A stretch of DNA of 62,716 bases, filler included, from Stramenopiles sp. TOSAG23-6 (lineage: Eukaryota): the NCBI GenBank assembly GCA_900128565.1. It is 20 parts of 20 records of this genome, joined end to end, with 100 filler letters (N's around TTAATTAATTAA, not from the genome) between each part and the next. Parts side by side here need not be neighbours in the genome. Positions count along the whole stretch, not along the records: positions 22,048 to 25,091 come from LT637682.1; 19 more parts are not named here. The stretch is one strand, 5' to 3'. Under the pieces are notes generated by a model, which saw only the letters and a list, made by a program, of their open reading frames with translations, searched no databases and had not been told where the DNA came from. Both the position numbers and the translations under genes were made by a program. Positions 2,188 to 60,846 of this stretch are shown here, piece by piece; positions within the stretch are counted from its first letter, which is position 1, and each line of letters opens with the position of its first letter.

Positions 2188-3001
2188 ATGCTGAATCGAA
2201 TTTTCTCTTCTTTAGGTGATCTTCTCAGCAGTTCTCACGAAGACTCTCCAAAGAAAAAAATGGTTCCAGTGGATAACAGCGCCGCATCGCCTAGCCTCAA
2301 GCGACGTAGTTTTAGAGTTGAAAATCCTGTTTCTCCAACATCTCCATTTTTAACCCCGTCAAAGCGATCGCGATTATTTTCAAACGAAACTACAGGATTA
2401 ACACCAGCAACAAAGAGTTTGTGTGTTGATACACAAAAGATATCCAATAATGAAAATGTTGAGTTGAATTTTCCGTCAAAGGACCTTGAAGACAATATTT
2501 CGGATTTCAATGATAGTATTTCGGATTTGGATGACAGTCTGGATTGGGAAGAAGTCATAAATTTAGAAAATAAACGAGAAAGTGCAGAAGTGTACGATGA
2601 TACCATAGAGAAAAATCTAGATGCAGCACAAAGACGAGCTTTAGCACTTGCAATTGATGGTTCAAATATATTTATCACTGGAAGTGGAGGAGTAGGCAAG
2701 AGTCATATCTTGAAATTGATTATTAGAAAATTGAAAGAGCAAAACAAACAAGTATGTGTATGTACGTTTTCGAATTTCAAATTTATTTTTTTGTACCAAA
2801 TTTCGTACCTAACGATTTTTTGTATGAGAAAAAACTTTTTTTTTTTCACAATAAATGTGCGCCAACTGGAATTGCCGCTAGTCATCTTGGGGGCACTACT
2901 ATACACACGGCTTTTGGTATTGGCAAGCCTACACAAGTATCAGATTTCCGAAAAATGTATGAGAAAGATAGGAAAACTGACCATTATTTAAGTAAGGGTA
3001 T
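2188..3001 (+). CDS. PIF1: PIF1-family 5'-3' DNA helicase, N-terminal part (3' partial, spliced)
   Basis: NIFITGSGGVGKS Walker A; after removing intron 2762-2856 it reads VCVCAPTGIAASHLGGTTIHTAFGIG (PIF1 motifs Ia/Ib). Confidence 0.85.
2762..2856 (+). other. non-canonical GT-AT intron (family member)
   Basis: GTACGTTTT...TTTCGTACCTAAC...CACAATAAAT; removal gives T+GT GCG CCA ACT GGA (CAPTG) in frame. Confidence 0.85.
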
Positions 3002-3746
3002 GTACGTTTCATATGAATTTCTAATTTAAGTTTTTTTTTCATACGAAATTTCGNNNNNNNNNNNNNNNNNNNNNNNNNNNNNNNNNNNNNNNNNNNNTTA
3101 ATTAATTAANNNNNNNNNNNNNNNNNNNNNNNNNNNNNNNNNNNNNNNNNNNNTTTTTAATTTTATCGCTTTCTTTCATTTTTTTTATTTTTAATCTACC
3201 AATTTTCTATTTTTATTTATATCTGAGTGTTGATTCCATATTTTTTAAGGCCTTTTTTCATTTTTAGTGTTTAATAAAACAACACAGAACTATCTTATAA
3301 TGATGTTATAATGATTTTATATATATATGCAACTGCTTCTATTTATATTATATTAATCATTGTGGCATTTCTATCCTCACGTATCAAATACTAAAGAATA
3401 CACTCTCTATAATAATTCAAATGAAAATTTTGAGATACCCGGTAACATATGATCAGCTTTGGATTTTCTCACCGGTCAGCAAGGCTCGTCACTAACTTTA
3501 TTTTTTTCGTACGAAAAACGTCCCATCATTACCGGCCAAACAAAGTCATTCAGATTTGTGTCGACTGTGTTGTTCGAGAGTGTGTCTTTGCTCTCTAAAA
3601 AGTCTCTCACAGAATAAGGCAGAATTTCATAAGAGAGATCGAGATAATTAATTTCAAGGCATTGTAGAGTAGTCTAGTAGGTATAGTATAACCTGGCGAA
3701 GGACTTGTTATTAGGGTAACTTATCAAGTGCGCTACTTTATTTATT

Positions 3747-5792
3747 ATGGACCTCTCTAGCATGAGTGGCGTGATTATGTAAGTACCATTATTACACAAC
3801 TCACATATTTATTTCTTTTAAAATTTTGAAGTAAAGGAAACACATCTCAACGTGTCTTCCGGTATTGATGAAAGCAATACACAAACTATTTCTTTTCTAT
3901 CATCATCATCCACAAATACTATCATCACTATCCACAAATACTATCATCACTGACCACAAATACCACTGACATATACAATCATTCATAGGGAGTATTCCGA
4001 TGACTCTACTGGAGAGCACGAATCAGATTATGAGCATGATATTGAGGATGATATGGGAAGTGGTGGAGGACCGCAGTCCCGCTCAGGAATGATGTCTTTG
4101 GATGAAACTCAGGACGCAAACGCCGGAGCCTCTCATCCTTCTACAGATGCTGCGGCACTGACAAGGGCAGCTCAAACGGCACTTTTGAGTGGAAACGGCG
4201 AAGGCTCTGTCAATATTACAGGTAATGGATGTGCCCAGACGTCGTCGAAAAAAAATTTCACTGTGTATATAATTAATGTTCATGCAGCAAATGGTGCAGT
4301 GTGGACAGTTTACAGAAGATACAGCCAGTTTAAGGCATTAAGTGAGAAAATACACATGAGGATGCACACAAGACTTGCTTTGCGAGTACGTGAGTCTTTA
4401 CCACCAAAAAAGATTATTGGTTCATTTGACCCTGTGTTTATTATTCAGAGACAAAAGGCGTTGTCAATTTGGTTAGGAGATTTAATGGATGCATTTCGCA
4501 ATATTTCTATGCCACCTTTTAATGACGAAGATTTACGTCTTTTTGTCACACACGATGCGAATAAGCCTCCAAAGGGTCTCCAAATATCGGTGAATAGTTC
4601 TACAGATAAATCTTCAGATAATATAGAAAACCAACAGCATGATAATGGTAATATGTGCCCAGATGGTCAAATGGAAGACGCATTATCTCAAGCGACTTCA
4701 ACGAATGTATCACGATCACGTGATGTTCGTACTGGTAAAGTAGTTTCTTTGGAAGATTTTGAAATGATTAAAGTAATTGGAAAGGGAAGTTTTGGTAAAG
4801 TTCTCCTTGTACGTAAACGTGAGGGTCGTAATTTATATGCGATGAAAGTGTTGGATAAAAAGAACATCATTCGGAGGAATCAAGTTGAACATACAAATAC
4901 GGAAAGGCGAGTGCTTGGTCAGATTCGTCATCCTTTTATTGTTACATTGCATTATGCATTTCAAACACGAACTCGTTTATATTTTGTGTTGGATTATTGT
5001 TCTGGAGGTGAATTGTTTTTCCACTTAGGTCGTTGCGGACGTCTTCGCGAATCACTCGCTTGTTTTTATGCTGCTGAAATCACTCTTGCATTAGCACATT
5101 TACATTCTTTGGGTATTGTATACCGAGATTTGAAACCGGAAAATATTCTTCTTGATGGTGACGGTCATGTACGACTTGCTGATTTTGGTTTATCAAAAGA
5201 AGGAATTACTACGGGAACATCTGGTACAGGATCATTTTGTGGTACTGCAGAATATCTAGCACCAGAAATTCTAAATCGCACAGGGCATGGTACAGGTGTA
5301 GATTGGTGGGCCCTTGGTATGGTTTTGTATGAAATGCTTACGGGTATGCCACCTTGGTATACTAAAGAACGTGAAGTTTTATTTGAACGCGTTCGTCGTT
5401 CACCTCTTGAATTTCCAAAACATGTCTCTCCCAATGCAAAATCAGTTATTCAAGGTTTTCTAGTACGTGATTCTGCTAAACGTATTGGAGTTCGACTTGG
5501 TGCACAGGAGGTAATGGCACAGCCGTTTTTTGCGCATATTGATTGGAAAGCTTTATACGAAAGGAGATTATCTCCACCTTTTCGACCCCGTAAAGATGTA
5601 GGTTCATTGGATGCCTCAAACTTTGACAAGGTATTTACTCGTATGAAAATTGAAGTACCTACAGGACCATCTTCCATTGCTGGATCAAATACATTTGCAG
5701 GATTTTCATTTGAGGGACATATTCAAGACAGACGTGCACGTGAATTAGAACGTATGGAGAGAGAGAGACAAAATGGGAATGGTATCCCATAA
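3747..5792 (+). CDS. PX-domain AGC Ser/Thr kinase (SGK/S6K-like); exons 3747-3778 and 3989-5792
   Basis: PX motif WTVYRRYSQF...LPPKK; kinase GKGSFGKV, YAMK, YRDLKPEN, DFG, FCGTAEYLAPE; hydrophobic motif FAGFSF. The upstream exon joins in frame through a GTAAGT...CATAG intron. Confidence 0.9.
3779..3988 (+). other. canonical GT-AG intron (not of the repeated family)
   Basis: GTAAGT donor, CACTGAC branch-like site, CATAG acceptor; restores the frame AT+G GAG TAT into ORF 4053. Confidence 0.75.
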
Positions 5793-6311
5793 CATTTTGT
5801 GAAGATCTATTGTATGTGTAGGGTAGTAACATTTTTTAAGTAAGTGATGAATACAGTGGAAATACTCCAATATTGTTTTATCTATAAACGAAGACATTTG
5901 TCAAATTATTTAAAATGTATATTTTTACTCCATCATTTAACATGTGTAAGAGTGTTTTCTTTAAAGTTTCTTTCTTTTAAAGTTTCTTTCTTTACAAATT
6001 TCTGTACAAGTCATATCTACTCGATACTTTAAGTCATATCCAGCCCATCCAGCCCCACCACCACCACATGCTACTCGATACTACACTAGATTTGAAAAAA
6101 TTACCAAGAGGACTAAATGTAGACACAACGACTGGTTGTTGAATTAAGTACATGTACACAGGACAAATCCATACTCATTACTTTTTTCATACCAGACTTT
6201 ACAGANNNNNNNNNNNNNNNNNNNNNNNNNNNNNNNNNNNNNNNNNNNNTTAATTAATTAANNNNNNNNNNNNNNNNNNNNNNNNNNNNNNNNNNNNNNN
6301 NNNNNATACAT

Positions 6312-6411
6312 GTATGTTTTTTTTTTTTTTAATTTTTTTTCTTAATTTTTTTTTCGGTCGAAATTCCCGTCCTAACAAATTTTTCAAATTTTTTTTTTTT
6401 TCACAATACAT
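6312..6411 (+). other. non-canonical GT-AT intron (family member)
   Basis: GTATGTTTT...GTCCTAAC...TCACAATACAT followed by the OGT exon GCA GCC CGT CGT ATT (AARRI). Confidence 0.7.
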
Positions 6412-7770: not shown

Positions 7771-9356
7771 TTAAATTATTTCAGGAACTAAAAAAATAAT
7801 TGGAAACAATAGAATGATGAATAACACCAATAAACCTGTATACACAATGATGGGTGAAGATAAAATTGATACGTTTTGTCCACTTCGTTGGCTTTGAGGA
7901 CTATTCCGTTGAAGCAAGCACTTTTTCAAATCTTCATTAATAGCTCTTCTTATAAAATCACGTTTTTCTTTCATATTTTTACCTTTTGCAAGANNNNNNN
8001 NNNNNNNNNNNNNNNNNNNNNNNNNNNNNNNNNNNNNNNNNACGAAATCTTGGACTTTCATCTGTAGTTAGATGTTGCTGTATCCAGTCACGCATTTGAC
8101 ACATTTGCAATGATGGATTTTCCCCTCCATGTGCAATCTTATTTCGGCGTATGCATTCTTCATTTGTAGCTTCTGTGAGTCTTTGACTCGCTGTTGTACC
8201 ACTACCATCGTCATTTGATAAATTCGCAAACTTTTCTGCCACGTTTTTGATAATACGATCCTCTTCTTCTCTATTCACATTAACATTCTTTGAAGCAACT
8301 TTATTATTTTCATTTGTATCATCATTCGCAGTTGCATGACTAGCCTGTGAATCATCTACACTTGTACGAGTATTAGCCGTAGTTTTATCTGCATGTTCAG
8401 ATTCTTTTTTCAATTTATCTTTTATAGCATCTGCGACGAGTTTTGGCGTATTATCAGAAGGTCCTAAATTATTTTTATGTAGTTTATGTCGTTTATGTAT
8501 TGATGCAGTAAGCCGTCGTTTATGTGAATCAAAATTACATATCAAATGATCTTTTTTTGTTTCGCCCATGTTTTTTTGGATTTCTTCAAAAATTTCCTCC
8601 AGTTCATCGGGTACGTAAATGACAGGGTCTGTCATCCTAACACTACTCATGTAATGTCATGCTGTATTTCTGTACATAGCCCAAATATGATTCATCATGC
8701 CTCCAACATTTATACCTTCTCGATAATCGAACAAAAATTCGCTGTCTAATCCTGTTCCAAAGCTTTTGTTATTTGGTGTACCAAAAGCCTCAAACGATGT
8801 ACACCGATCAGTATCCTCAGCATCGTCCTCCCAGCTAAAAAGATGACCTCCTGGACAAGAATCATTCACATCAAAAATAATTTCATCCATATTATGACAA
8901 TCTTGCCACATGGCCCAAATACGATCCACTTGTGTGTGATGCATATAAAACAAAGGATCTGAAGGCGAGAGAAATGATCTCATATGACCACCTAATTGAT
9001 TATGTTGAGTATTATGAGGTACAGTTTCCAAAGCTGCACGAAATCCAGCTGAACCACCATACGTACTTCTATTATGAATAATATCCATTAATTCTAGATA
9101 AGAGACCAATGGTCGCTTAGAATCCCATTTGTCTTGTGCAAAATTCCAATTTGTACCACGAGACAAACAATATGTATTTTAGAAAAATATTTCAAAAGTT
9201 TTCTAAAAAAAATTGTTAGGTACAAAATGTCGTACGAAAAAAAATCGATTTTTTTTTTTTCGAAATTAAAAAAAAAATAAAACATACATCCTCCATGATC
9301 TACCCAGTCACTAAACGGTGATGTTTCACTCATACAACCAACATTTTTCTCTAGAC
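7771..9356 (-). CDS. tyrosinase (type-3 copper) domain protein with C-terminal TM segment; 5' partial
   Basis: PHNTQHNQLGGHM...SPSDPLFYMHHTQVDRIWAMWQ (CuB site); intron 9172-9287; one in-frame TGA at 8657-8659; N gap near 8000. Confidence 0.75.
9172..9287 (-). other. non-canonical GT-AT intron (family member)
   Basis: GGA T|GTATG...GTACCTAAC...AAAATACAT|AT TGT TTG TCT CGT gives GYCLSR in frame with the tyrosinase ORF. Confidence 0.8.
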
Positions 9357-9559
9357 NNNNNNNNNNNNNNNNNNNNNNNNNNNNNNNNNNNNNNNNNNNN
9401 TTAATTAATTAANNNNNNNNNNNNNNNNNNNNNNNNNNNNNNNNNNNNNNNNNNNNAAAAAATATTTTTTTTTTTTTTTTTTTTTTCGTTAGGTACAAAA
9501 TTTCGTACGAAAACCAAAAAAAAAAAAATTCCAATTTCAAAAAATGAAATGAAAACATA

Positions 9560-11238
9560 CTACCTCTCACCTTCTTTGATTTTTTATCTTTTAAAAATTG
9601 ACGTTTTTTCTTTTTTTCTCGTTTTTTTAAAATGGAATCGTTGATTGAACCTTCTTCATCCAATTTATTTGCTTCATTTTCAAGTTCTATCGTTTCAATT
9701 GTATCATCTTCAACTGCACCATGTATTTTGTAAAATATTTAAAAAAAAATTCTAAAAAATTTGTTAGGTACAAAATTTTTATAAAAAAAAAAATCGATTT
9801 TTTTTTTTTCGGTAAAAAAAAAAAATAAGACATACATCATTTTCGTCTATACTATTACTCTTTACATTTGCTTTTTCTTGGGCAAGTTCAGCAACAGTTT
9901 TACCTGCCATTAAAGCAGCTTTCTGATCTGCAATACGTTGCTCTTTTTTACTTAGTTTTTTTCGTCCAAATGTCATTTCTATTTTTCGTTTTTTACGTCC
10001 AATTAGAATATTCAATTCATCATTTATTGTTTTGCAAGTCAGACGAATGTATCGACGAAATTTCCAATTTAATTGCCAAAAAAAATTAAGTTTCCAACAA
10101 ATAAATGAAATTATAATAAATATCAAAAGGAATACAATACAAGGAAATAATAAAGGTAACCCAAACACATTCCAATAAGGAGCTGACAGTTTTGTTCCAC
10201 ATTGTAAACCTGTTGTGTTGGAAAAATATTTCAAAAAAAAAAAAAAAATCTTTTAGTTTAGGTACAAAATTTACTATAAAAAAAAATGTAGACTTTTTTG
10301 TAAAAAAAAAAAATAAAAACATACACCTCCGATAATAATAAAGAAAACCTAATTGTAAATCACAATGACCACATAGAGGACCAATATATCCAATAGAACA
10401 TGAATTATCTTGGACACCTAAAGTCTTTTCATCATTCATACTCATTATTGTATTGATTGGTCCAAATAATGTCGGTTTTACACCTGTATCCGGTGTCATA
10501 ACACCAAACTGTAATACCATGTATTTTGGAAAAATATTTCAAAAAAAAAAAAAAAATTGTTAGGTACAAAANNNNNNNNNNNNNNNNNNNNNNNNNNNNN
10601 NNNNNNNNNNNNNNNNNNNNNNNNNNNNNNNNNNNNNNNNNNNNNNNNNNNNNNNNNNNNNNNNNNNNNNNNNNNNNNNNNNNNNNNNNNNNNNNNNNNN
10701 NNNNNNNNNNNNNNNNNNNNNNNNNNNNNNNNNNNNNNNNNNNNNNNNNNNNNNNNNNNNNNNNNNNNNNNNNNNNNNNNNNNNNNNNNNNNNNNNAAAA
10801 TATTTCAAAATTTTCCAAAAAAAAAAATTTGTTAGGTAAAAAATTTTTTTACCAAAAAAAAAAATAAATTCGATTTTTTTTTTTAGTTTCAAAAAAAAAA
10901 AAAAAAAACATACATTGTTGTGTCACAATAACATTTGTCAAGGTGGATTTTGATTGAATCGTCCAGTCGTAATATCCTGGTAATATAGTGGGTACAATGA
11001 CACCAACAGTGGATAATCCACCATCAGTTAATTTTTGTCCAGTTGTACAATGCATTCCATCATCACAGGATGTACACATTGTATTATCATCATTATTATT
11101 ATTATTATTATTATCAGAGGTATCAGAGGTATCAGTATTATCCGTCTTTCTATTTAAAAAAGAATTAGGCTTACCTGTATTACTACAAAAATAAATAAAA
11201 AAAAACTGTTAGCTTAGGTATGAAATGTTGTAGTAAAC

Positions 11239-19001: not shown

Positions 19002-19635
19002 CCAAAGTCTATAATTTTCCTTACATGTGATGCATTTGGTGTACTACCACCTGTTGCTAAATTATCAAATGGACAAGCTATGTATGTTTTTTTTTTCAAT
19101 TTCGAATTTTGTTTTCGTATGAAAATTTGTACCTAACAAATTTAAGTTTTTTTTTTGTATCTACTACAAGAAAAATTGGAGAAACATGATTCGAATGCTT
19201 ATCTAGTTAATACTGGATGGACAGGTGGTGCATATGGTGTCGGGGAGCGAATGTTCGTTTCCATGATACATTTCGAATATATATATTTTTTTTTTTTTAT
19301 AGTAAATTTTGTACCTAACAACTTTTTGTGTTTTTCGGTAAAAAAAAAATATTTTTTCACAATTTATGTCTATCAAAGAGACAAGAGCTTGTATTGATTC
19401 AATTCTTGATGGTTCAATTTCTAATTCGACTTTTGTAAATGATTCTATATTTGGTTTCCAAATCCCACAAGGTTTACCAGGCGTATCAGCTGATGTATGC
19501 AATCCTCGAAATGCATGGGATGATAAAAACTCATATGATGTTCAAGCTGCAAAATTGGCTGATATGTTTCGTGAAAATTTCAAAAAATATTCAGAACCTG
19601 GAGTCACTGATTATACTGAATTTGGACCAAAGTAA
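19002..19635 (+). CDS. PCK1: phosphoenolpyruvate carboxykinase (ATP), C-terminal exons
   Basis: [21 protein letters not shown]...[44 protein letters not shown]. Confidence 0.92.
19253..19367 (+). other. non-canonical GT-AT intron (family member)
   Basis: CGA AT|GTTCG...GTACCTAAC...CACAATTTAT|G TCT ATC restores conserved G-x-R-M-S-I. Confidence 0.85.
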
Positions 19636-22156: not shown

Positions 22157-22711
22157 TGTGTTGCACGTAAAACAGTCTATGATGATCAAGCAGATTACTA
22201 TGATATGTCACAATCCCATTGGTTATCAGAAAAAGAACAAATCGATGCAGCTCGTCAAGATACTATCAATAGAAAAAAATTACACACTAAAACACGAAAA
22301 AAAGTCGCTTTAGATTTAGCCTCTCGGAAATTTATAGAAATTGATGAAAATGATGATATAAACCCCAACCCTAGTCAAAACCCTAACCCTTCAAGTAAAG
22401 ATTATTTAGATTCAAATGTACAAATCGGTATTGGATTGCATAGACAAAATAATATACAATCAAATGTGTCATCTACAGTTGGTAATAGAAGAATATCAAA
22501 TATTCAAAATGCACCTATTACATTACGTAAAGTATACAAATTAATACGAAACCCTAACCCTAACCCTACTCAAGTGCAGGAAGAGAAACGAAATGTTATT
22601 GACAAGAATAGTAATAGTCATAAAACTAATGAGACTATTGTTGGTAATGAAACTATACGATCAAATCGTCTTCAACATGGTATGGAAAATGGTCCAAGTT
22701 TTTTGTGGTGA
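22157..22711 (+). CDS. activating signal cointegrator 1 (TRIP4/ASC-1)-like, last exon
   Basis: RKTVYDDQADYYD..SHWLSEKE...ALDL matches the TRIP4 post-zinc-finger motif. Confidence 0.7.
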   Translation, partial: CVARKTVYDDQADYYDMSQSHWLSEKEQIDAARQDTINRKKLHTKTRKKVALDLASRKFIEIDENDDINPNPSQNPNPSSKDYLDSNVQIGIGLHRQNNIQSNVSSTVGNRRISNIQNAPITLRKVYKLIRNPNPNPTQVQEEKRNVIDKNSNSHKTNETIVGNETIRSNRLQHGMENGPSFLW

Positions 22712-22799: not shown

Positions 22800-25002
22800 C
22801 TAAAAATTATATCCAGCAGGCAAATATCGACTCAATATTTCATTATCTTGAATAGCTAATGCAACGTCTTCCACTTGACAACCTAATAAGAGACGTGGAA
22901 ATGGCATATATTGTATAAAAATTAAAAATTTCATTTTTTTTTAGTTAGGTACAAAATTTTGTATGAAAAAAAAAAAAATGTACATTCATCCTTACAACAA
23001 ACATTTTCGCTGGTTGTTGCAATTGTAATAATGAACTCTCAGCCAAGCGACGACTGATGCGAAGAACATCTTGAGGTCCTGGAATTTTTGATATTCCTTC
23101 CACACGCAACCTATCTTGTGAATATATATTTAGTGTTTTTACTGTTTTTTTAGTGTTTTTTTAGTATTTTTAGTGTTTTTAATATTTACAAAAAAAAAAA
23201 AAAAAATTTTTAATTTTACAAAATTTTACAAAATGTTACATTTTGGAAACACGTACAAGGTGTTAAATCGTCTCAATACACTCGTAAAATCAGCATAATC
23301 AACACCAGATTTTCGTAAATCAATGGCCAAGGCTACAATCCACATTTGTTCAAAATAAGGTGCCTCGGTAATGAATTTTGGAAAAATATTTCAAAAAAAT
23401 TATAAAAAAATTGTTAGGTACAAAATTTCGTACGAAAACCAAAAAAAAAAAATCGATTTTTTTTTTTTTTTGGTTTAAAAAAAAAAATTAAAAAATTTGA
23501 AAAAAAAAAAAATAAAACATACATATTCAGGATTTGCAGTTAGAAAGGAAAGAGATTTGTCCTGAATAACAAAATACCAAGATCCAGATGAAAGAGTACT
23601 AAATGGACTAGATCCAGAAGATAGATGAAAGTACAATGGAGTCCCATGTATTGTGAAAAAAACACGAATTTTACAAAAAAAAAAATATTGTTAGGTACGA
23701 AATTTTTTTACGAAATTTTTTTACGAAAAAAAAAAAAATAAATTAATAAATTCATGATGAAAACCGTACAGTACGTAAAGTCTTGAAATATTCTTTCTCA
23801 ACTGATATTGTATGTGTTGTAAAATTAATGTTTTTGTTTCTTTCAGGAAGACCTGCTTTAGTATCACCTATTTTGTGAAAAAATATTTCAAATTTTTTTT
23901 TTTTTTTTTTTTTTACCGAAAAAAAATCGTTAGGTACAAAATTTCGTACGAAAAAAAAAATTTGAAATCTGAAATATATTTAAAAAAAAAATAAACGTAC
24001 CAGGCATAGTTTCGTGGAATAATGGAATTACATTGTCAATTCCACCTGCAAGACCTTCAACAATATGTTCTAATTCTGAAGCGTTGTTGTCATACTCATG
24101 AACATTTAAATGGTGATGATTCACTTTTGTTATGGTTGGATGTGCATACCCAAAAGCAGCTGAGTAACCAACTTCGCACTTTGGTACTGACGTTTCAGTC
24201 CATGTATTGTGAAAAAAAAAAAAAAAAAAAATTTTGTTTAGGTACAAAATTTTTATAAAAAAAAAATTTAGACAAAAAATTGAAAAAAAAAAAAACATAC
24301 ATGTATCTGGAAGCCCATCAGGAGACTTGTATTGACATCCTCTAAAATTTGTACATACTTCATTTCCATCTTCATCATTGTAACAATGGGCACTAAACCC
24401 TCCAAATACAGTACAAGCCCAATATTCAGAGTTATACTGTTTATCTCCAGTCCCTCTTGTACTAATATGTATTTTGGAAAAATATTTAAAAAAAAAATTT
24501 TGAAAATTTGTTAGGTACAAAATTTTTATGAAAAACCAAAAAAAAAAAATTCGATTTTTTTTTTTTTTTTTTACCGAAAAAAAAAAAATAAAACATACAT
24601 ATGGAAACAATTTTTCTATACGACTACAGTTCGACGACTCATTTTCAATTTCTACCGTTACCCGGTTCATTCTTGGATGACAAGCTCCAATATCACATGA
24701 GCCACCTTCTCCTCTTTCACATGTATCACAATCTGAATCCCAACCAATGCAAGTATTGTGAAAAAATATTTTTTTTTTTTTGGATAATTTTTTTTTTGTT
24801 AGGTACGAAATTTCGTACGAAAAATTTTTTTTTTGATAAAAAATTTAATTTTGAAAATGTACAACACTTGGATGATTTTTTGAGTTGTGATTGATAGCAA
24901 GCACAGGAAGATTTGCAACCTTCTCGATTTGTTGCACAACTCCCCCAATGTGAGCTAGAATTATATTGCGGTAGTGTACACACTACTTTATTATTAGATA
25001 TC
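22800..25002 (-). CDS. intron-dense cysteine-rich hypothetical protein (about 9 exons), 5' partial
   Basis: A continuous peptide can be built across family introns (…KCCIGWDSDCDTC…LFPYISTRG…PDTWTE…MPGDTK…LRTGTP…RMNMPFP…YNF*); one junction near 23370 is unresolved. Confidence 0.6.
22908..22983 (-). other. GT-AT intron (family member)
   Basis: ATG AAT|GTACAT...GTACCTAAC...ACAATAT|ATG CCA TTT gives the longer, more protein-like last exon. Confidence 0.6.
23646..23769 (-). other. GT-AT intron (family member)
   Basis: CGT ACT|GTACGG...CACAATACAT|GGG ACT; the only stop-free frame in the following exon. Confidence 0.75.
23868..24000 (-). other. family intron with canonical AG end
   Basis: CCT G|GTACG...TTCGTACGAAATTTTGTACCTAAC...CACAAAATAG|GT GAT. 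Confidence 0.75.
24202..24300 (-). other. GT-AT intron (family member)
   Basis: ACA T|GTATG...CACAATACAT|GG ACT gives DTWTE. Confidence 0.75.
24467..24598 (-). other. GT-AT intron (family member)
   Basis: CCA TAT|GTATG...CCAAAATACAT|ATT AGT; 132 nt, in frame. Confidence 0.75.
24751..24862 (-). other. family intron with GT-TT ends
   Basis: TGT T|GTACAT...CACAATACTT|GC ATT GGT TGG; the nearby AT positions give out-of-frame stops. Confidence 0.65.
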
Positions 25003-25191
25003 CATATATTTTGGAAAAATATTTGAAAAAAAATCTAAAAAAATTGTTAGGTACAAAATTTCGTACGAAAAAAAAAATTCGATTTTTTTGTNNNNNNNNN
25101 NNNNNNNNNNNNNNNNNNNNNNNNNNNNNNNNNNNTTAATTAATTAANNNNNNNNNNNNNNNNNNNNNNNNNNNNNNNNNNNNNNNNNNNN

Positions 25192-32732: not shown

Positions 32733-33084
32733 ATGCCTATGCAATCTGTGCCTGCGATGGCGGCAATGTCCGTCTTAATCACATTAATCGGTGGTGGTCT
32801 CTATGCTGTGGACAAATATATCGACCCTAGAGTACGTGCCATTGTTCCATGTATTATCTAAGTTTCTTTTCGTGCTGATTTAATTTTTTTTTGTGTTTAT
32901 ACTCGTGCATTATATATCTCCATACACTAACTTTGTATTGATAATTGCTATATTTATACTATAACAGAACCTTCCTAATAATGCTCGTGGAAACGGTCAG
33001 TGGAATCACGAAATGTGGTTACGCGACATGCGCTTGGAAAAAGAAGCAGCGGAAGCACCTAGGAGACGCAAAGCTTTTGAATGA
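32733..33084 (+). CDS. small protein, NADH dehydrogenase subunit NDUFA1 (MWFE)-like; exons 32733-32831 and 32968-33084
   Basis: MPMQSVPAMAAMSVLITLIGGGLYAVDKYIDPR|NLPNNARGNGQWNHEMWLRDMRLEKE…; N-terminal TM plus W..M..RD.RL motif. Missed by the ORF track. Confidence 0.65.
32832..32967 (+). other. canonical GT-AG intron (not of the repeated family)
   Basis: GTACGT donor, CACTAAC branch, AACAG acceptor, phase 0. Confidence 0.8.
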
Positions 33085-35864: not shown

Positions 35865-36175
35865 GTTGAAGGATTAGAATTGTTAGTTTTTGTAAAGCAA
35901 ATCAGATTATATCAATGTAATCGTAGTATGCGATAAATTAAAATTACTGGCTGTTTCCGACTGGTGCTGTTCATTTGTGCTGTTCATTTTGAAATGAACA
36001 GTGACATTTTGCAGGTTTGTTCCTTTTTTTTGATTAAAAACTAAACCCTGGAGCCAAAGTCACAAAAACTAACAGATGACCGACGTAATTTACGTAAATC
36101 ATTAAATGCAATGCATGTAAATTTCTATTTCAAAGGCAATATATAATTGTTTCTTTTAGTATTTAGTTTTGTCAA

Positions 36176-37537
36176 ATGTCTGCGTCTATTGAAGCAACAA
36201 TGGGAATTGGTATTCGTTCTATAGTAGAATCTAAAACGTTTCACGCAATGTGCATGAATTTTGCGACATTATACGGCGCTTTGTTTACAATGAGTTTATT
36301 TTTGATCAACCCTTCAAAATTGACGTCCTCAAAGTCAAAGTCAACGTCTCGCTGGTTACCTCCATGTAGTTCATTCGGCAATGCAAAACGCGCCACAGAG
36401 ATATGGTTTCTTGGATACGGTTGTATTTGGATTACAGTTTTTGCATGTATAATTGGTGGAGGAATGTATAATTGGTTTGATTCTGAACACTACCTGATTG
36501 TTTGTATCGGTTTAGCTGCACCGCTGTTACTTCAGCCATTTATTTTCCCAGCTCTTACCAGTGAAGCCGATGTACCTCTCATTGAACGATATTCTTTTAA
36601 AGCAAATGTATGGATTGCTATATTTAGTTTTATTGGAAATTATTGGTATACTCATTACTTTTATAGTGTTCTAAAAGCAACCTATACATTTCCATCTCTA
36701 GATTTGAATGGTGTTCCCATCCCAATGTTTTTCGCAACCCATTTTTACTTTTCATTTTATCATACACTATCAAATTTGATATTACGTAAAATTGATACGA
36801 CATATGAAGCTGGAATTTGTCGTTTTTTATTTAGTATTGTTTTGATCATGGTAATGAGTTATACAACAGCATTTATGGAAACTTTGACAATTGCTGGATT
36901 TCCTTGTACGTTTTTGTTCACAAACCCTAACCCTAACATTTTTTTTCAAAAAAAAAATTCATAGGAAATTTTGTACCTAACAAAATAGTTTTACTTTTTT
37001 GAAATATTTTTTTAAAAAATATGTTATCAGTTTGAAGACTTTCATCAAGCATGTACTATTGGTTCTGCATTTTATGGTATTTATTTTCTTGTTAGTTTTC
37101 CAATGTTTCGAAGAATTGATGAAATTCATGTATGTTTTTTTTTGTTACTATGAAAATTGTGTACCTAACAAAATTTTTTTTTTTTTTTTTTTTGAATTTT
37201 TTTTTTGAATTTTTTTTTTGAATTTTTTTTTGATTTTTTAGAATGAATTTTTTTTTTTGGTAATCAATTCTGTACCTAACAAATTTCAAACTGTACTCCT
37301 ATTTTTTACAATACAACATATAAATGAAATTTGGATGATGACAGGTTTGTCCTCTACACCGAAGCAAAACACTGATAAAACGTGTATACAAAAAAATTCT
37401 TCATCTACCACACAATGGAAAGTACCATCGAATCTAAAATCAACAAAATCACGAAATCAAGAAATAAATTCACCTACAATAATTCAATGTAAATTCAGTG
37501 TATTTCAAGTGATTATGGAAGCTTTAGCTACGGGAAT
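36176..37537 (+). CDS. CPI1: cycloeucalenol cycloisomerase (cyclopropyl sterol isomerase), 3' partial
   Basis: RYSFKANVWIAIFSFIGNYWYTHYFY, GVPIPMFFATHFYF, TAFMET...FPCYQF...GSAFYGIYFLVSFPMF.RIDE. Confidence 0.9.
36906..37022 (+). other. GT-AT intron (family member)
   Basis: CCT T|GTACG...GTACCTAAC...AAAAATAT|GT TAT CAG TTT gives FPCYQF, matching the CPI1 FPYYEF region. Confidence 0.85.
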
Positions 37538-37558
37538 GTTTGTCTTCATGATGAATTT

Positions 37559-37595
<37 letters not shown>

Positions 37596-37752
37596 GAAAT
37601 TTTTTTCCTAAAAAATTTTTTTAAAATTTTTTTTTAAATTTTTTTTTAAAAANNNNNNNNNNNNNNNNNNNNNNNNNNNNNNNNNNNNNNNNNNNNTTAA
37701 TTAATTAANNNNNNNNNNNNNNNNNNNNNNNNNNNNNNNNNNNNNNNNNNNN

Positions 37753-40930: not shown

Positions 40931-42223
40931 GTACGTCTTGGATCGTTACTTTTATTTCTTCGAAAAATGAAAAATATTTCATTATTTAAAGTAAAAAGAA
41001 ATGGAAATTGTTTTCAACAGATGTGGCAATATTGTTTTGCCAAAAGATATACAAATTTAAATCAAGGAAGAAGAGGAAAACAAAAAGGAAGAGCTAAAAA
41101 AAAGGCTAAAAAACAAAAAGCTCGAAAAACATCTTTTTATAATATCGATAAAAAAAAATTGAAATTATAAAAATATGGCAAATACTGATAGTATTGANNN
41201 NNNNNNNNNNNNNNNNNNNNNNNNNNNNNNNNNNNNNNNNNNNNNNNNNNNNNNNNNNNNNNNNNNNNNNNNNNNNNNNNNNNNNNNNNNNNNNNNNNNN
41301 NNNNNNNNNNNNNNNNNNNNNNNNNNNNNNNNNNNNNNAAATCGATAAAAAAAACAAACATGAAAATAAAATCGATAAAAAAAAACAAACATATCAATAA
41401 TAGCGATAAAAAAACGAAACATGAAACAAAAAATGTTTTCAAATCAGCATCACAAGTTGCATCTGCAGTTGCTTCAAGCTCAGCAAAAACAGCTTTAAGA
41501 GCTTCTCTTCGAGCTTCGTCTTTTGTATGTAAAGCTTTTAAAGTTAAACAACAAAATGTATCAAAATCAATTTCAAAAGCTGCAAAATGTGCATATTACG
41601 CAAGTGCAGCTGCAGCATCATATGAAGCAATAACTATATCATCTGTCGTTGATGTATGTTTTCGTCGTGTTCAAATTTATTTTTTTTCAAATTTGTCTTT
41701 TCAAATTTTTAAATGTTTTTTTTTTCAAACAATAATTCGAAGCTAACAAATTTCAAACAAAAATATATTTTTTCACGCTATATGCACAAGAAAACAAAAC
41801 AAATATGCTATTGCTTCAAGAGAGAATACTAATGAAAAAAAATAAAGCACTTTACTCTAGGGGCATGCAACAAAATCAACAAAATCAACAAAATCAACAA
41901 TCAAAAGACAAAAAACGTCTGTGAAATTTGGTTCAGATTTGAATGTTGAAAATACATTTCAGCAGTCATCTAAAACACATTGTAATATTCCAAAGGCATT
42001 TATATGTCCAATATCTGGCAAAATTTTTGAAGACCCGGTCATGCTCATTGGTGATGGAATATCGTATGAACGGACTGCGTTGCATAAGTGGTTTTCAGCA
42101 ACGAATCGTTGCCCAAGTTCATATGTGGAATTGAATAAGAGTCAACGGGAAATTCTGAATAATGTTGGTTTGAAACGAATTGTTTCTGCATGGAAGCAGA
42201 ATAATCCTAATTATTATGTTTAA
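40931..42223 (+). CDS. protein with C-terminal U-box, partial; exon structure uncertain
   Basis: IPKAFICPISGKIFEDPV..GDGISYER..L..W.....CP at 41921-42223; the upstream frame join is unresolved. Confidence 0.65.
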
Positions 42224-42716: not shown

Positions 42717-43410
42717 TTACCGGCTACTTTGTGTTTTAGATTTAGATTTTCCGCCTTGCATCGCATGTTCTGTCAACATAGCGTACGTGTAGCTCCGTTG
42801 GTCGGAGTTGTTGCTACTCAATGTGTTAGCAAACCTGTGGGCCTCATCTTGCAGTTTTTGCATTCCTTGACCCGGATTGAGGCATTCGGGGACTTTACCC
42901 GTAGCATACTCCCACGCCTTCTTGCACAAATGTCTTTCTTCTATTTCTTTTGCTGTCTTGGCATTATTCAATCTTGTGTTTGCTGCTGCTTCTGCTGTAC
43001 TGGCCAGATTCAACCTTGTGTTTGCTGCTGCTTCTACTCTTGCTGCTTCTTCTTTTGCTGTCTTNNNNNNNNNNNNNNNNNNNNNNNNNNNNNNNNNNNN
43101 NNNNNNNNNNNNNNNNNNNNNNNNNNNNNNNNNNNNNNNNNNNNNNNNNNNNNNNNNNNNNNNNNNNNNNNNNNNNNNNNNNNNNNNNNNNNNNNNNNNN
43201 NNNNNNNNNNNNNNNNNNNNNNNNATACTTCGTTGCCGCTGTATTCAACAGAATTTGCGCATTGTCTATTTTCTCACCTTGCGAGATTCCTTGCGCGAGT
43301 TGTTTCAGCCAGTTAGAAGTAAAAGCGTCTCCCCCAGCGTGTCCCAAAACGTTGGTTATTGCGAGTCCTGCAAACAGGATTGCTTTGGAAATTTTGCTCA
43401 TGTTTACCAT
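42717..43410 (-). CDS. putative secreted protein with Ala-rich tandem repeats (N gap inside)
   Basis: Signal-like MSKISKAILFAGLAITNVLG; 14-aa repeat TAEAAANTRLN. Confidence 0.5.
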
Positions 43411-50359: not shown

Positions 50360-52217
50360 GCTTGTAGATTAAAATCGCTATTTTTGGAATGCAGTGAAAA
50401 TGATATGAGTGAATTAGAGGTAGATAATAACGAAGCGTTTTTTATGGGTGTAGCATTTTGTGGTGTCGCAGGAGAAACTAGTGAAAGTAACAATCCTCAA
50501 AATAATTATAATACACTAGAAAAGCGCCGATTTCGTGTATTAAAGAGTTGTTGTGGAATCATGTTATATATATTAGGAAAAGATCAGTATCATCATCGTG
50601 CTAGACATATGCTAGCCTTTGGGATTCGTAATGGTCGAGTATTGGCAGAAACCGCTGGAATTTCTTCATCAATTGTAGAAAAATTTGGTTTAGATCAAGC
50701 TGTTGAAATTTATTCACCTTTATTTGAACGTTCAAAACTTAGGCAAATTGTTGCTGTATGGATTCATGTACGTTTATTTTCCTATACATTTTCCTATACA
50801 TTTTTTTTATTATTTTTGTTTTTTCGTAAAAACATTTTGTACTTAACATTTGTTTTTTACCAAAAAAAAATATTATTTCACAGTATAGGATACTACTGCT
50901 ACTGGTTTTTTTGCATTGGAAAAACATCAAGCAAAATATGATTACTTGCGTAATAAGTACGTAACAACGTATATAAATATGTTGTGTAAACAAGATCCAA
51001 TAAAATGTCTTGTCCGTCTTGCTTCTCTTCAGAAAAATATCATGAACAAAACTTTCATGTCTTCTGAATCGAATCAAAATCTTCGAAAGTTGTGGTTGGA
51101 TTCTGTTTTTGTTGCCCGACTGAGTGTACTTGCACGTACTTTACCGACTAAAGAATCCAAAGTAATATCGAGGCTTTATGGTACGAATACAGCAGACACT
51201 CTTGCACAAGAATCTTTTGAGTTTCATAATAATAATGAAAAAGATGAAAAATTAGAAATTGTATATTCTTTATACATTTCCATCCTAAAGTCAACACATA
51301 TATTTAACCAAAGTCGCCGAATTATCCATGCAGATGTTTATATTTCCGATTTACCCGGTGTTTCTGCAATGTATCAAAAGATGAAAATAGAAAAAGAAGA
51401 ACGAAAACATAATGAATTAGTTCAAGCCGCAGAGCTTCTACTAGTTGGATTTTATGTAGGGTATAGAATGAAGTCATATTCTAAAATATTAACTAGCAAA
51501 GATTCTCTTGTTCAAGTACGTCTTTTTTGTGAAAACAAATGGCCTGAACAATTAAGCGGTGGAAGAGGGAAATGGATAAAATTATCAATGTCATACAAAT
51601 ATCCAGAGTTAGTCAAACCAACTGTACAAGGGTCAAAAATAAAAAATAAACAAGAAAAGAAAGTCAATGATACTCTATCAAATAAACAAGAAAAGAAAGT
51701 CAATGATACTCTATCAAATAAACACGAAAAGGAAGTCAATGATACTCNATCAAATAAACAAGAAGTCAATGATACTCTATCAAATAAACAAGAAAAGAAA
51801 GTCAATGATACTCAATCAAATAGTTTAGTTTTTAAAAGTAAGTTAAATAAAAACACTAATAATGCGGATGATGAAGCAACATTATCATGTGATGAAGGTT
51901 CGAAATCTGGTTGTACGAACTCAATTTTAAATTTACCAAGTGCTACCCCTCAGATTGCGATTGTACCAATTGCCAAGGATGATGTAGTTATTTGTGATGC
52001 TCAGAAAGACTCAGAAAAAGATGAAGTCAATGATAGTATGATTATAGAGGAAGAAGTTCCAAAAATGACGGATAGTACTACTAATTCACTACTTTGTGAT
52101 TCTAACCCAAATAACTTGAAATTAAAATCTCAGGCTGAAAAAGAATACAAAATTAGTGAAAATACAAAACTTTCGTGTAATAATAATATAATTACAACGA
52201 GTACTGTACCAATGTAA
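50360..52217 (+). CDS. hypothetical protein, last two exons (50360-50767, 50889-52217)
   Basis: ORFs join in frame through family intron 50768-50888 ending GTATAG. Confidence 0.6.
51645..51818 (+). repeat. coding 33-bp tandem repeat (NKQEKKVNDTLS)
   Basis: About 5 copies of AAATAAACAAGAAAAGAAAGTCAATGATACTCTATC-like units. Confidence 0.85.
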
Positions 52218-53429: not shown

Positions 53430-55369
53430 TTTTGGAGTCAATTAAACAATAACAAACAAGGTGGAATGATTCCTCCTTGTGGTGTTGTTCCTTTTAGTGT
53501 ACGTTAAAAAAAAAAAAAAAAAAAAAAATTAAACATACATTGTATCACAATCAACCACGTAATCATCATCAACTTCATTTTCAATTTTTTTTTTTCTTCA
53601 TTGTGTCATTTATTTCACAAATATTGTCATTAGGGTTAACCCTATCATTACTTTGTATAGAATGTTTCTCAATAGATGTATCAATGTCAAAAGATGCCAC
53701 AAAAGTGTCTTTTTTGTCATTTTTGTCTGTTTGTATTTCGTGTTTTTTTTTATCTTTGTCTGGAATGGATAAATTCTGTTTTGTTGATATTTCGTGTTTT
53801 TTGTTGTTTGCATTGAAATCATTATAATGAAGCCATCGTGGGCATGCTGAACATATCCGATATGGTGTATCATTTTGAATTTCTATTCGAGCAACTAAAT
53901 TATTATACGCAAAACAACGAACATATATTTTAAGAAAATATTTTTTCCAAAAAAAAAAAAAAATTTTGTTAGGTACAAAATTTCGTATGAAAATATATTT
54001 TGAAAAAATATTTTTTCCAAAAAAAAAAAAATTTTTGTTAGGTACAAATTTTTCATAGTAAACAATAAAAAAAAAATGTACTATGGAATACATCAAACCA
54101 AATTATGAGAAAATTAAAAATTAAAAATTTAAAAAAAAAAAAAAATCCATAATTTTTGTTAGGTACAAATTTTACTATGAAAAATATAATGTAAAAAAAA
54201 AACGTACATGATGTTTGTATACAGAATGTGTACATTGTTTTGTACCATTTTCTTGACCTAATACATTAGGGTTAGGGTTACATGGAAGTACTGTAGAATT
54301 TGAAAAACATAATTCTAAAAAAAATGCAAAAGATAAATTCCATTCCAATCCATTTAAACACACTGTAGGCAAGACGTTCTTCTGACATTTCGTGCAATAT
54401 GAATTTTAAAAAAAATATTTAAAAAAAAAAAAAAATTTTGTTAGGTATGAAATTTGCTACGAAAAAAAAATTAAAATTTGAAATTAAAATTTGAAATTAA
54501 AATCACATACAAGACCATGTAATTATCGTATTGCGTATAGAAACAGGTTTGTCCAGAGGATCGACTGCGATGTGAACTCTAGTATTCCCTCTTGCATAGT
54601 AATGTCTGTGCTCAAAACATTTTTTTTTGCACAGTTTATCACCACATAATTGAATATATACAGTGAAATAATATTTAAAATTTTATTTTTGTATTAGGTA
54701 CGAAAATCTCTAGGAAAAAAAAAAATTTTTTAAAATTAAAATTTTTAAAATTAAAATTTTTAAAATTAAAATTAAAATTTTTTTTTGTTAGGTACGAAAT
54801 TTACTATGAAAATTATTATTATTATTTTTTTTTTTGTGAGATGGAAACAAACTTTACGTGACGATCCTCTAGAGCTCGAACCAACTAAACCTGCCGCAGC
54901 GGCTAACTCTCGCGAAGGATTTGATCCATTTCGTGACGAAAAAATTCTTTCCCCAAAGCAGTTTTGTAACAAATATGGTTTGTAAAAAAATATTTCAAAT
55001 ATTTCAAATATTTTTGTTAGGTACAAAAAAAAAAAAAATTCGAAATTTTTTTTTTTTGTACAAAAATAATAAAAAAATACATTCACCAATGGTGACGTCA
55101 TTTCCCATATAGCATTGTACTGATTTAACTTCAGGTGGATGGCATTGTGCTTCTTCTGCTGGAATATTACGTTTTAGACAACATTGAGCATATTTAATTA
55201 TAGAGTGTAAATTATTTTCATTTTTTTCAAAAAACATTTTTTTTGTATTTTTTGTATTTTTTGTATTTTTTGTATTTTTATCATTATTTCGTGTATTTAG
55301 TGTTAAACTAGTAGCATCAGCAATATCACTTGTACTACAACTTCTACTTCTCATCAAGCGAGGCTTGAG

Positions 55370-59126: not shown

Positions 59127-59785
59127 NNNNNNNNNNNNNNNNNNNNNNNNNNNNNNNNNNNNNNNNNNNNNNNNNNNNNNNNNNNNNNNNNNNNNNNNNN
59201 NNNNNNNNNNNNNNNNNNNNNNNNNNNNNNNNNNNNNNNNNNNNNNNNNNNNNNNNNNNNNNNNNNNNNNNNNNNNNNNNNNNNNNNNNNNNNNNNNNNN
59301 NNNNNNCGTGATAATCATATATAGAGGGTGGCAAATTTTGTGAAAAAACCCTAACCCTAACATTTCCCTTTGGTTAAAACAACAACAACAAAAAAGACAA
59401 CTTCTCGAACGAACAAACATTAATTAAAAGGAATGATAAATCTTTGAAAATTTCATTCTTCTGGGATGCTCATTCACATCAAGTATAAATGACACATGCT
59501 TTCGTCAAAGAGTATAAAATCACACATAAAATTAATTTCAACTGTTTTTTATAGTTTGATGTTTTTTAAAGCATTTACACTATACAATNNNNNNNNNNNN
59601 NNNNNNNNNNNNNNNNNNNNNNNNNNNNNNNNTTAATTAATTAANNNNNNNNNNNNNNNNNNNNNNNNNNNNNNNNNNNNNNNNNNNNCTGTGAAAAAAT
59701 ATTTCAAAAAAAAAAAAAAAAAAAAATTGTTAGGTACAAAATTTTGTACGAAAAAAAAAATCTGAAATTCATGATGAAAACGTAC

Positions 59786-60846
59786 ATTTTATTTGGAGTG
59801 AGCTGAAGAGCACGAGATCGAGCTTGTATGCGTTGTGAAAAAATATTCTTTGAATAAAAAAAAACGTTAGGTACGAAACATTTGGATTAGACACAAAAAA
59901 AATATTTGAAATTGATTTAAAAAAAAACTCCTTAGGTACAAAATTTCGTATGAAATGTTGTTTTGAAATTGCTGATAAAAACGTACATGCGTTGTGGACA
60001 GAAATCACTTTCAGTCGTATGTACAACTGTTTTAATTGGACTGTTATTTGCTTCAATTTTTCCAGCAATATTTGTATTAATTGCGTTTATGCGCCATTCG
60101 CGTTCCCTAGCTTCAAGACTAGAAGTAAAGGCCGTTGAGGCTCGCCGTCGCTTCAATCGAACATCTGACGGCGGTAGTCGATAGTCAACGTCAAAGATCC
60201 GTTGCTGACGGAGCCGCTCTGCTTCAAAAAGTAAACGAGTATCTACAGGAAATGCATTTTTCGTTTTATTTGACGCTTTATTTATCTGTGTACGAGCATC
60301 GGGAGTTGTGGTACATTGGCGTTTATTTCTGTTTCTCTGTGAGCATCGCTGCGCTTCATGAGCATTGAGACGACGAATGACTTTATGCCACTCCTTTTTA
60401 TCTGCCGAACTTTCGGGCGGTCTGTACGTATTTCGAGAATTCGTTGTAACAAGTAATGCAGGTGTACGATAGGTTATACCGCATCCATGGCAGCAATGTA
60501 TAAAGACGTCTTTGGTGCCCGAGATTGGAGTAAAAGTTCTTTCCTTTGCCGATCCGCGACCACGCTGACCTATTGATGTGCCACGTTTGCGTGGTGGTGG
60601 AGGAGGTGCTTGTTCCCTATGCATATTTTTTGGATGTTCCAATTTCACATTCCTGGAAATATTTGATCCATTATAATTTTTGGATCCTTCAAATGGTTCC
60701 TTCATATCATACTGCCCCGTTGAAATGTTACTTTGAAAGAATCTACTCGAAGAAGAAGGCCTTGTACTACTACGCATCATAGTAGGTTGGGAAACCCTCA
60801 TATTAGATTGAGAAGTCTCGCGGTACCCATGATGTGGCGCATGCAT
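59786..60846 (-). CDS. hypothetical basic protein, first exons (including a 42-nt exon 59786-59827)
   Basis: 304 aa ORF continued in frame across intron 59828-59986. Confidence 0.55.
59828..59986 (-). other. GT-AT intron with 10-nt direct repeat and two branch modules
   Basis: CACAACGCAT|GTACG...CACAACGCAT|ACAAGC. Confidence 0.7.

Follow-up and report, generated by a model that had tools for sequence, protein, structure and literature searches.

Introners, as described for Micromonas pusilla and Aureococcus anophagefferens, are DNA transposons of MITE-like type by which introns are created (PMC11282704, in the portions available to us). Bursts of intron gain are at present best explained by such elements; the question remains how splicing of a new insert is good enough for it to be tolerated. 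Here we describe a family of similar short introns in DNA from Stramenopiles sp. TOSAG23-6 (assembly GCA_900128565.1). The window, i.e., the whole stretch that was analysed, comprises 62,716 nucleotides (nt), filler included, and joins 20 parts of 20 records of this genome. A sequence-only reading of the window had pointed to a conserved module within 23405..23470, distinct from the branch sites of ordinary introns, and had suggested that a variant small nuclear RNA (snRNA) or a dedicated protein might recognise it. In our view the module is probably the part bearing the branch site in a transposon-like family of high-copy introns, i.e., an introner family with U2-type-like signals.

The introners of Micromonas and Aureococcus, catalogued in PMC12130899 and 10.1101/2022.06.06.494994, are among the closest known systems. 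There, too, sequence-similar short introns reside in sense orientation in unrelated genes and at unrelated positions (theirs by the hundreds to thousands), and the splice signals come partly from the element and partly from the duplicated target; their short terminal inverted repeats and 2-3-nt junction repeats may have counterparts here. In the available portions of these accounts the elements are known transposons with canonical GT/GC-AG ends. In contrast, about 80% of the present copies end in AT, the branch module outweighs an inverted repeat of 4-7 nt, and mobility is no more than presumed. Repeated non-GT-AG introns are also on record for Amoebophrya (PMC7789003), Fritillaria borealis and euglenids (PMC11282704) where, as far as the sections seen describe them, junction repeats likewise blur the cut and inverted repeats can join the ends. 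In Fritillaria (AG-AC, AG-AT) and Amoebophrya (many pairs) both ends vary and the donor and branch signals are weak or absent, whereas the present family has a rigid, yeast-like donor and branch site and deviates only in the last base. A third comparison is with the U12-type introns of Physarum polycephalum. These were gained en masse, possibly through a transposon with a dinucleotide target, possess rigid extended motifs and include GT-AT introns (10.1101/2020.10.12.336362, consulted in part). According to the same source the Physarum donors read RTATC(C/T)TT, the 3' end follows the branch motif TTTGA at a distance of 10-12 nt, and few of the introns are GT-AT; the present family, having GTAYGT, a U tract and TACCTAAC some 43 nt from the end, is U2-like.

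The sequence at 23413-23436 is as first described, GTTAGGTACAAAATTTCGTACGAA on the plus strand. It reads TTCGTACGAAATTTTGTACCTAAC on the minus strand and lies inside a 159-nt intron-like segment of a minus-strand gene (23364..23522), which we call the focal intron. All copies follow one plan. Exonic AT precedes a GTAYGTTTT donor; next comes T/A sequence of low complexity, in which CG-centred palindromes (A-run, TCGA, T-run) are often found; then the module and a T-rich tract; and finally a 3' block with the consensus GAAATATTTTT(C/T)CA(A/C)AATACAT, usually ahead of an exonic G. In the focal intron, always on the minus strand, these parts are the donor GTATGT (23517..23522), to be compared with GTAYGTTTT after exonic AT in the family; an A-run/TCGA/T-run palindrome (23438..23474; ACC A12 TCGA T15 GGT on the plus strand) which folds as a long A:U hairpin and is found in some copies only; the 10-nt palindrome TTCGTACGAA, which is perfect and makes up the 5' half of the module as first delimited (23427..23436); the conserved flank AAATTTTG (23421..23428); the putative branch-site octamer TACCTAAC, followed by AA (23413..23420); and the 3' block GAAATATTTTTCCAAAATTCAT (23371..23392), the CAT of which is unused in this copy.

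A sequence-only covariance model, built from 25 copies and spanning the branch module to the 3' end, matched 47 copies at a cut-off of E<=1e-4 (17 on the plus and 30 on the minus strand; 25 of the 47 are the training rows), i.e., one per ~1.3 kb. Two more true copies scored between 1e-4 and 1e-3. When the open frames on either side are compared, a crude measure, 43 of 45 copies have the orientation of the coding strand. The donor columns are close to invariant (G 31/31, T 31/31, A 30/31, C 16 and T 15, G 26/31, T 30/31), and the flanking exons contribute T at -1 (29/31), A at -2 (21/31) and G at +1 (25/37). The octamer is placed 32-126 nt downstream of the GTAYGT donor and typically 41-48 nt (about 43) upstream of the 3' end, with the T-rich tract after it; this is the position of a branch site, as the sequence-only reading had supposed. 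The host genes are unrelated and are interrupted at non-homologous positions: they encode PEP carboxykinase (PEPCK), a PIF1-like helicase, a cycloisomerase, a tyrosinase, a PARP-domain protein, alpha-adaptin and an FkbM methyltransferase. An example is the tyrosinase-domain gene, in which the 24-mer search (one mismatch) and the covariance model both locate a family intron at 9172..9287 (minus strand).

How much of the module is conserved? With Y at position 15 and up to three mismatches, the 24-mer has 23 matches, eight of them exact, where none is expected (none in 100 shuffles), and the core GTACCTAAC occurs 38 times exactly in the window against 0.19 expected. The claim that about 25 nt recur in nearly all family introns holds for a shorter core: the full 24-mer is present in only about half of the 47 model copies, and in an anchored logo of 45 copies the near-universal stretch runs from position -8 to +9, AAATTTYG TACCTAAC AA. 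Thus, the conserved unit is ~18 nt, not 25. The 5' remainder is variable. Among 40 copies free of N the palindrome TTCGTACGAA is exact in 9, has one or two mismatches in 8, three in 3 and four or more in 20, and its four CpG positions are conserved to merely 36-52%. In its place TATAGT (4 copies), TTATAA (3) or GTAAAA (3) are encountered; as each of these recurs in several copies, they mark subfamilies. Part of the changes in the palindrome are CpG transitions (CA, TG). In the flank 5' of the octamer, by comparison, the frequencies are A.93, A.86, A.90, T.90, T 1.0, T.91, Y (T.73, C.27) and G.89 (n=42-45).

The logo set was chosen by at most one mismatch to the octamer, and its octamer columns are biased. 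Hence, the copies were ascertained twice more without reference to the octamer, via the 3' block and via the donor GTAYGTTT. The 3' block yields 26 copies, 23 of them with an exact octamer, the rest being GTCCTAAC, TACCTAAA and one without a match. By the donor, 27 sites could be assessed: 17 have the exact octamer, four have one mismatch and six are without a match. Two of these six are family copies, the most diverged ones, with the branch sites CGTCCTAAC (6312..6411, plus strand, 3' block intact) and AAGCTAAC (41654..41783, plus strand, end approximate), and CTAAC is kept in both. Where the octamer ends in G or A, a second CTAAC or CTAAA comes next. The variant TACTTAAC, noted earlier, does exist at 50840-50847, in a family intron at 50768..50888 (plus strand) with an AG end. 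The two Cs of TACC are conserved to 100% and 98%, whereas the other C/G positions of the element reach 36-73%. All this is to be seen against a median whole-intron identity of 0.63 (maximum 0.86; 26 copies, 325 pairs; mean column identity 62%). Because the octamer is almost unchanged at this degree of divergence, recent copying cannot account for it. As judged from these alignments, the octamer appears to be held by selection and not merely to have been copied recently. Recent copy expansion, which the sequence-only reading had named as the explanation that would undo its proposal, can explain the palindromic 5' half of the module, not the octamer. As a side observation, the elements hold CpG transition variants: at donor positions +4/+5 CG 13, TG 13 and CA 3, and at the YG before TACC CG 8, TG 32 and CA 4. 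With a window-wide CpG observed/expected ratio of 0.89 this is compatible with some CpG-specific decay.

The palindrome invites another interpretation, namely that the module, or its palindromic half with a GTAC...GTAC inverted repeat, serves transposition, either as the site of a dimeric transposase or as a DNA or RNA hairpin. TTCGTACGAA is a perfect palindrome, and in the focal copy and two others a 6-bp hairpin, GUACGA/UUGUAC, ends exactly at CUAAC; other CG-centred palindromes, ATCGAT and TTCGAA, recur within the elements. Yet the hairpin can form (at least 5 of 6 pairs) in 15 of 40 copies only, compensating changes are absent, and five of seven introns fold no better than shuffled sequences (z -1.0 to +0.5; the exceptions are z -2.9 and -1.55). 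GTACC is intact in 19 of the 21 copies unable to form the local hairpin. Further, a role in transposition cannot explain an intact octamer in old copies which no longer transpose. We regard this interpretation as improbable. In the introner reading the palindrome would have been inherited from one master lineage, would differ by subfamily and would not be required.

Possible signs of mobility are found at the ends and in composite copies. Direct repeats of 2-4 nt, usually AT(G), flank 15 of 19 clean copies, and two copies have repeats of 7 and 10 nt. These repeats fit equally a 2-nt target duplication around a GTAT...ATAC element, or a TG...CA element inserted into A^T. The terminal inverted repeat is very short (GTAT(G)TTT versus AAAATAC, 4-7 nt), and the GTAT...ATAC ends pair in three of six folds. 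Three introns are composite: 37130..37316 (plus strand) possesses two branch modules (37162-37169 and 37273-37280), 53923-54081 (minus strand) has two in tandem, and 59828..59986 (minus strand) combines TACCTAAG (59931-59938) with TACCTAAC (59866-59873) and carries the 10-nt direct repeat CACAACGCAT at both junctions. Spread by transposition would account for the family.

The non-family introns are few, are situated near gene starts and have their branch site 18-46 nt ahead of the AG. Just three to four make up the comparison set. The intron at 32832..32967 (plus strand) has GTACGT, CACTAAC (32925-32931) and, 36 nt on, AG, and is in frame as read from the sequence; a first intron at 3779..3988 (plus strand) has GTAAGT, CACTGAC twice (3948 and 3964) and AG at 3987-3988; a third, near 2036-2171, has CACTAAC 46 nt ahead of AG. 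The first two are as the sequence-only reading gave them, and its statement that the module is distinct from ordinary branch sites, (C/T)ACT(A/G)AC, is borne out. The family has C and not A ahead of CTAAC, the prefix TAC and an AT end. A peculiarity of the intron at 3779-3988 deserves mention: if the kinase gene starts at the ATG at 3748, the frame is kept only with an end at ...ATTCAT (3986), whereas the AG, two bases downstream, would break it. Hence, AT ends may reach beyond the family; alternatively, that intron sits in a 5' untranslated region.

Saccharomyces introns follow GTATGT...TACTAAC with a near-invariant donor and branch consensus. The present family resembles them in its near-invariant signals and in that the choice of the 3' site depends mainly on the branch site; the introns of Saccharomyces, unlike these, are not homologous copies and end in AG, and TACCTAAC has one C more than TACTAAC. 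Among the U2-type, yeast-like signals the GTAYGT donor, the CTAAC-containing branch site and the pyrimidine tract are present; the terminal AG is lacking in most copies. The family fits the host's intron grammar, with a GTAYGT-type donor, a strong xCTAAC branch site and roughly 20-45 nt up to the acceptor. Two diverged copies keep CTAAC only, and the CACTAAC or CACTGAC of ordinary introns is similarly spaced; the octamer is therefore best read as a normal U2-type branch site, the second A of TACCTAAC being the presumable branch adenosine. A special snRNA is not needed.

One may ask whether a mobile family exists at all. The ordinary introns are likewise strong in donor and branch site, with similar spacing, as would be the case if the shared sequence were nothing else than a very strict splice-signal grammar of this species, as in yeasts. 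This is very unlikely. The copies have sequence in common which is no splice signal (TTCGTACGAA, the A-run/TCGA/T-run palindromes, the 22-nt 3' block), they fall into discrete subfamilies, and they show tandem duplicated modules and junction direct repeats; the ordinary introns are devoid of all these features.

The following mechanism is probable for the introner family. Each copy would carry its own splice signals: the GTAYGTTTT donor, the branch site TACCTAAC with the kernel CTAAC, a U-rich tract and the 3' block ending in CAT. The ordinary U2-type machinery would use them, perhaps with one bulged C in the branch pairing, because they match what the host's own introns present, i.e., GTAAGT or GTACGT donors and branch sites of the form (C/T)ACT(A/G)AC, with the acceptor 18-46 nt beyond. 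The copies interrupt coding exons in sense, and loss of the branch site would break the host gene, so that the octamer and its nearest flanks would be under purifying selection while the remainder of the element would drift.

The 3' ends are the more surprising feature of the family. AG is the near-universal 3' end of introns. In the aligned last column of 37 copies we find T 31, G 4 and A 2, preceded by A in 35 of 37, and in the AG-ending copies G occupies the same column as T in the others. Most copies appear to be removed as GT...AT, a few as GT...AG and one, whose 5' flank is likewise TT, as GT...TT. Protein alignments fix the AT end in two cases. The first is an exact GT-AT case in the PEPCK gene, GTTCGT...TACCTAAC...CAATTTAT at 19253..19367 (plus strand). 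Its exons align with residues 409-438 and 443-527 of chain 1j3b_A; query residue 4 corresponds to 443, so residue 1 is 440, and residue 439 is a Met codon split AT/G. The junction has no gap, and exactly 19253-19367 is removed; an intron of the same length shifted by -2 to +1 would yield an identical mRNA. The second is GTACGT...TACCTAAC...AAAAATAT at 36906..37022 (plus strand, 5' flank TT) in a cycloeucalenol cycloisomerase-like gene. The product, ...TLTIAGFP/CYQFEDFHQACTIGSAFYG..., is gapless over the junction (...TLTIAGFP/CYQFEDFHQACTIGSAFYGIYFLVSFPMFRRIDE) against nine of nine homologues. In the PIF1-like helicase gene, an intron GT...AAAT at 2762..2856 (plus strand) separates exons aligning with residues 4-41 and 53-91 of 5o6b_A, and the length at the junction departs by no more than two residues from that in PIF1 of yeast and man.

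The cut position is ambiguous by 1-3 nt, as AT(G) occurs at either junction. A shift by two, resulting in AT-AC boundaries, was considered as a general rule and rejected: C at -3 is present in only 24 of 37 copies and A at -4 in 29 of 37, and several copies have TT or CT as 5' flank. The PEPCK copy would become AT-TT, and the TT flank makes an AT-AC reading impossible for the cycloisomerase copy. An upstream AG was rejected as well. In 22 of 37 copies there is none between branch site and end; where present, its distance to the branch A is 8-21 nt, and in most cases the frame would be lost.

Elements which are short, AT-rich, located within coding sequence, bounded by a repeated dinucleotide and precisely removed could in principle be eliminated from the DNA, comparable to the internal eliminated sequences of ciliates, and not from the RNA. 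The chance of this is extremely remote. The sense orientation of 43 of the 45 copies, a textbook spliceosomal donor, branch site and U tract in the correct order, and AG at the shared end column in four to five copies speak for RNA.

Two observations on these host genes are added. In the PEPCK gene, ~60 residues are missing between ...NGQAMY and YLLQEKL... at 19082-19157 (plus strand), where an intron has the family 5' half and module but lacks the 3' block. Apparently two family introns have collapsed into one, or the sequence between them was deleted, be it in the genome or during assembly. The public gene model P0123, labelled as from a marine-stramenopile single-cell assembly, is identical to the cycloisomerase of the window (36167-37640, plus strand) over the exon-encoded stretches compared. 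It skips 26 residues which the open frame of the window encodes within exon A, reads into the family intron (…AGFPCTF…), imposes a splice that looks canonical and has a frameshifted tail at its end.

The focal gene itself contains six consecutive family introns, all on the minus strand, and their removal at the aligned ends joins seven exons into one open frame of ~340 amino acids. Apart from the focal intron these are 23646..23769 (donor GTACGG, GT...AT, 5' flank CT), 23868..24000 (full 24-mer, AG at the usual end column of the family), 24202..24300 (octamer TACCTAAA, GT...AT), 24467..24598 (GT...AT) and 24751..24862 (donor GTACAT, end ...ATACTT, TT also as 5' flank). In the focal intron, with GT at 23522-23521, ending at the usual AT (23371) gives a frameshift and stops. 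Its block ...AAAATTCAT is followed by TACCGAG, and only the AG at 23365-23364, 7 nt further on, keeps the frame. No Pfam family was found on the exons of this gene and no relatives were found for its 66-residue exon; the ends of the focal intron are thus supported by the frame.

A number of observations weigh against a mobile family spliced by ordinary U2-type machinery. The canonical branch-binding sequence of U2 is GUAGUA. UACCUAAC pairs fully with it only if one C is bulged, and plain pairing leaves the constraint on TAC unexplained; TAC ahead of CTAAC is conserved as strongly as CTAAC itself. To our knowledge, a standard U2-type second step of splicing is not known to accept an AT terminus, and most copies end in AT. 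The comparison rests on those three to four ordinary introns. As regards mobility, the best pair of copies is 86% identical, and near-identical copies are absent. An automatic frame rule found the frame kept at 14 of 23 unambiguous junctions against 7.7 expected by chance; for the remaining nine, individual inspection pointed to an AG close by, to a second donor copy or to an exon frame that had been misjudged, which is weaker evidence. Public RNA shows no splice joints in the one RNA-labelled run with family-like sequence, and in three other RNA runs the matches were limited to low-complexity or telomere-like stretches. In a seawater metatranscriptome (run X1), short deep contigs lie on the module and 3' block, e.g., 23375-23431 and 25007-25070, and one 196-nt contig, on 24604-24776 and with four differences, matches an exon of the focal gene and continues for 26 nt in the upstream intron. 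A close relative is present in that sample, the material being RNA or DNA carry-over.

These points bear on two related proposals. According to the first, the module is read by a co-evolved or extra snRNA or by an altered or dedicated branch-binding protein (SF1/BBP), e.g., by a U2 in which GUAGUA has become GUAGGUA as a lineage-specific change. All eight positions of TACCTAAC are constrained, not CTAAC alone, as is G at -1 (89%); the constraint is independent of the hairpin; and the majority non-AG 3' end hints at altered machinery. There are precedents, too, in the sections available to us: in Physarum the branch-binding site of U12 co-evolved with the TTTGA branch motif (10.1101/2020.10.12.336362), and in Entamoeba and Mastigamoeba U1 co-evolved with the donors (10.1101/2022.06.08.495308). 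But most lineages with odd signals kept standard snRNAs, as the latter source, seen in part, reports for 69 yeasts, Giardia, Thecamonas and Micromonas. Ordinary introns of the same genes use CACTAAC or CACTGAC, hence a standard U2 must exist, and the two family copies which keep CTAAC only nevertheless function, judged by the frames of their hosts. We consider this proposal unlikely. The second goes further and holds that the spliceosome changed together with the invading family: an altered U2, or else an altered branch-binding protein, would recognise a rigid, extended branch site made up of UACCUAAC with its flanks and, given the fixed ~43-nt spacing and the ...CAAAAUACAU block, the second step would cut after AU, not AG, at very many sites genome-wide. 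This is doubtful, though slightly less so than the first. If true, GU-AU would be the majority intron class of a free-living eukaryote.

The minor spliceosome has also to be considered, since the sequence-only reading placed the module between U2- and U12-type consensus sequences. Splicing by a minor (U12-type) or transformed minor spliceosome would account for the tolerance of AT, GT-AT is a known minority boundary among U12-type introns, the family motifs are extended and rigid, and the donor GTATGTTTT differs from the Physarum donor GTATCTTT only at +5. On the other hand, the donor GTAYGTTTT, with G at +5, T at +6 and C at +4 in half of the copies, is not RTATCCTT, and an ordinary GT-AG intron uses the same GTACGT donor. 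The branch motif is not TCCTTRAC, and it is located ~43 nt from the 3' end with a long T tract after it. In the window RTATCCTT occurs 5 times (4.06 expected), never at family introns, and TCCTTRAC once (3.37 expected). CTAAC, the invariant part of the branch site, is canonical for the U2 type. Splicing by a minor spliceosome is most unlikely, even more so than a strict grammar without a mobile family.

The whole stretch is eukaryotic, with ~31% G+C and a high density of genes. It encodes an alanine aminotransferase whose nearest relatives are stramenopile (57-58% identity to Fibrocapsa and chrysophyte proteins). The host lineage is an AT-rich marine stramenopile, an uncultured protist. Blocks of 100 nt (44 N, TTAATTAATTAA, 44 N) recur every ~3.14 kb, e.g., at 3054-3153, 6206-6305 and 9357-9456, and interrupt a number of family introns; in appearance they are joiners from the assembly or the result of masking, not biology. 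Irregular runs of N are present at 10572-10796, 41198-41338, 43065-43224 and 59127-59306. The telomere-like CCCTAACCCTAA occurs nine times, with none expected, at 22552, 36925, 49747, 49849, 49882, 54266, 55725, 55740 and 59349. The sites fall within exons, in coding NPNPN runs, and within introns, and most of them appear to be on the sense strand of the local gene, going by strand and frame lists rather than a tally.

Searches beyond the family gave the following. In the 62.7-kb window Rfam returned no match of any kind, snRNA genes included, and no transposase domain was detected among the 40 reading frames scanned there. Viral contigs scanned with the 24-mer gave no match. A metagenome scan with AAATTTYGTACCTAAC returned at least 117 loci, and none of the matches listed has family context; these are chance 16-mer matches, and the scan is uninformative. 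A literature search, with supplements and subscription journals outside its range, met in the portions available no account of TACCTAAC, nor of families of GT-AT introns, nor of any intron family in uncultured marine stramenopiles. The sections seen of PMC12130899, PMC11282704, PMC7789003 and PMC5778133 contain nothing on GT-AT intron families or on the present one; in those of PMC5778133, which deals with single-cell genomes of such marine lineages, introns appear solely under methods.

In this old, diverged family no other part is nearly as well protected as the branch site. This is a natural experiment on the signal which the host cannot lose. At the same time the family, with textbook donor and branch signals, seems to depart from the AG rule in its last base, and thereby, unlike the known non-canonical systems, it separates the choice of the 3' site from the rest. 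If P0123 is typical, annotation which assumes AG would misread the family-interrupted genes of this lineage.

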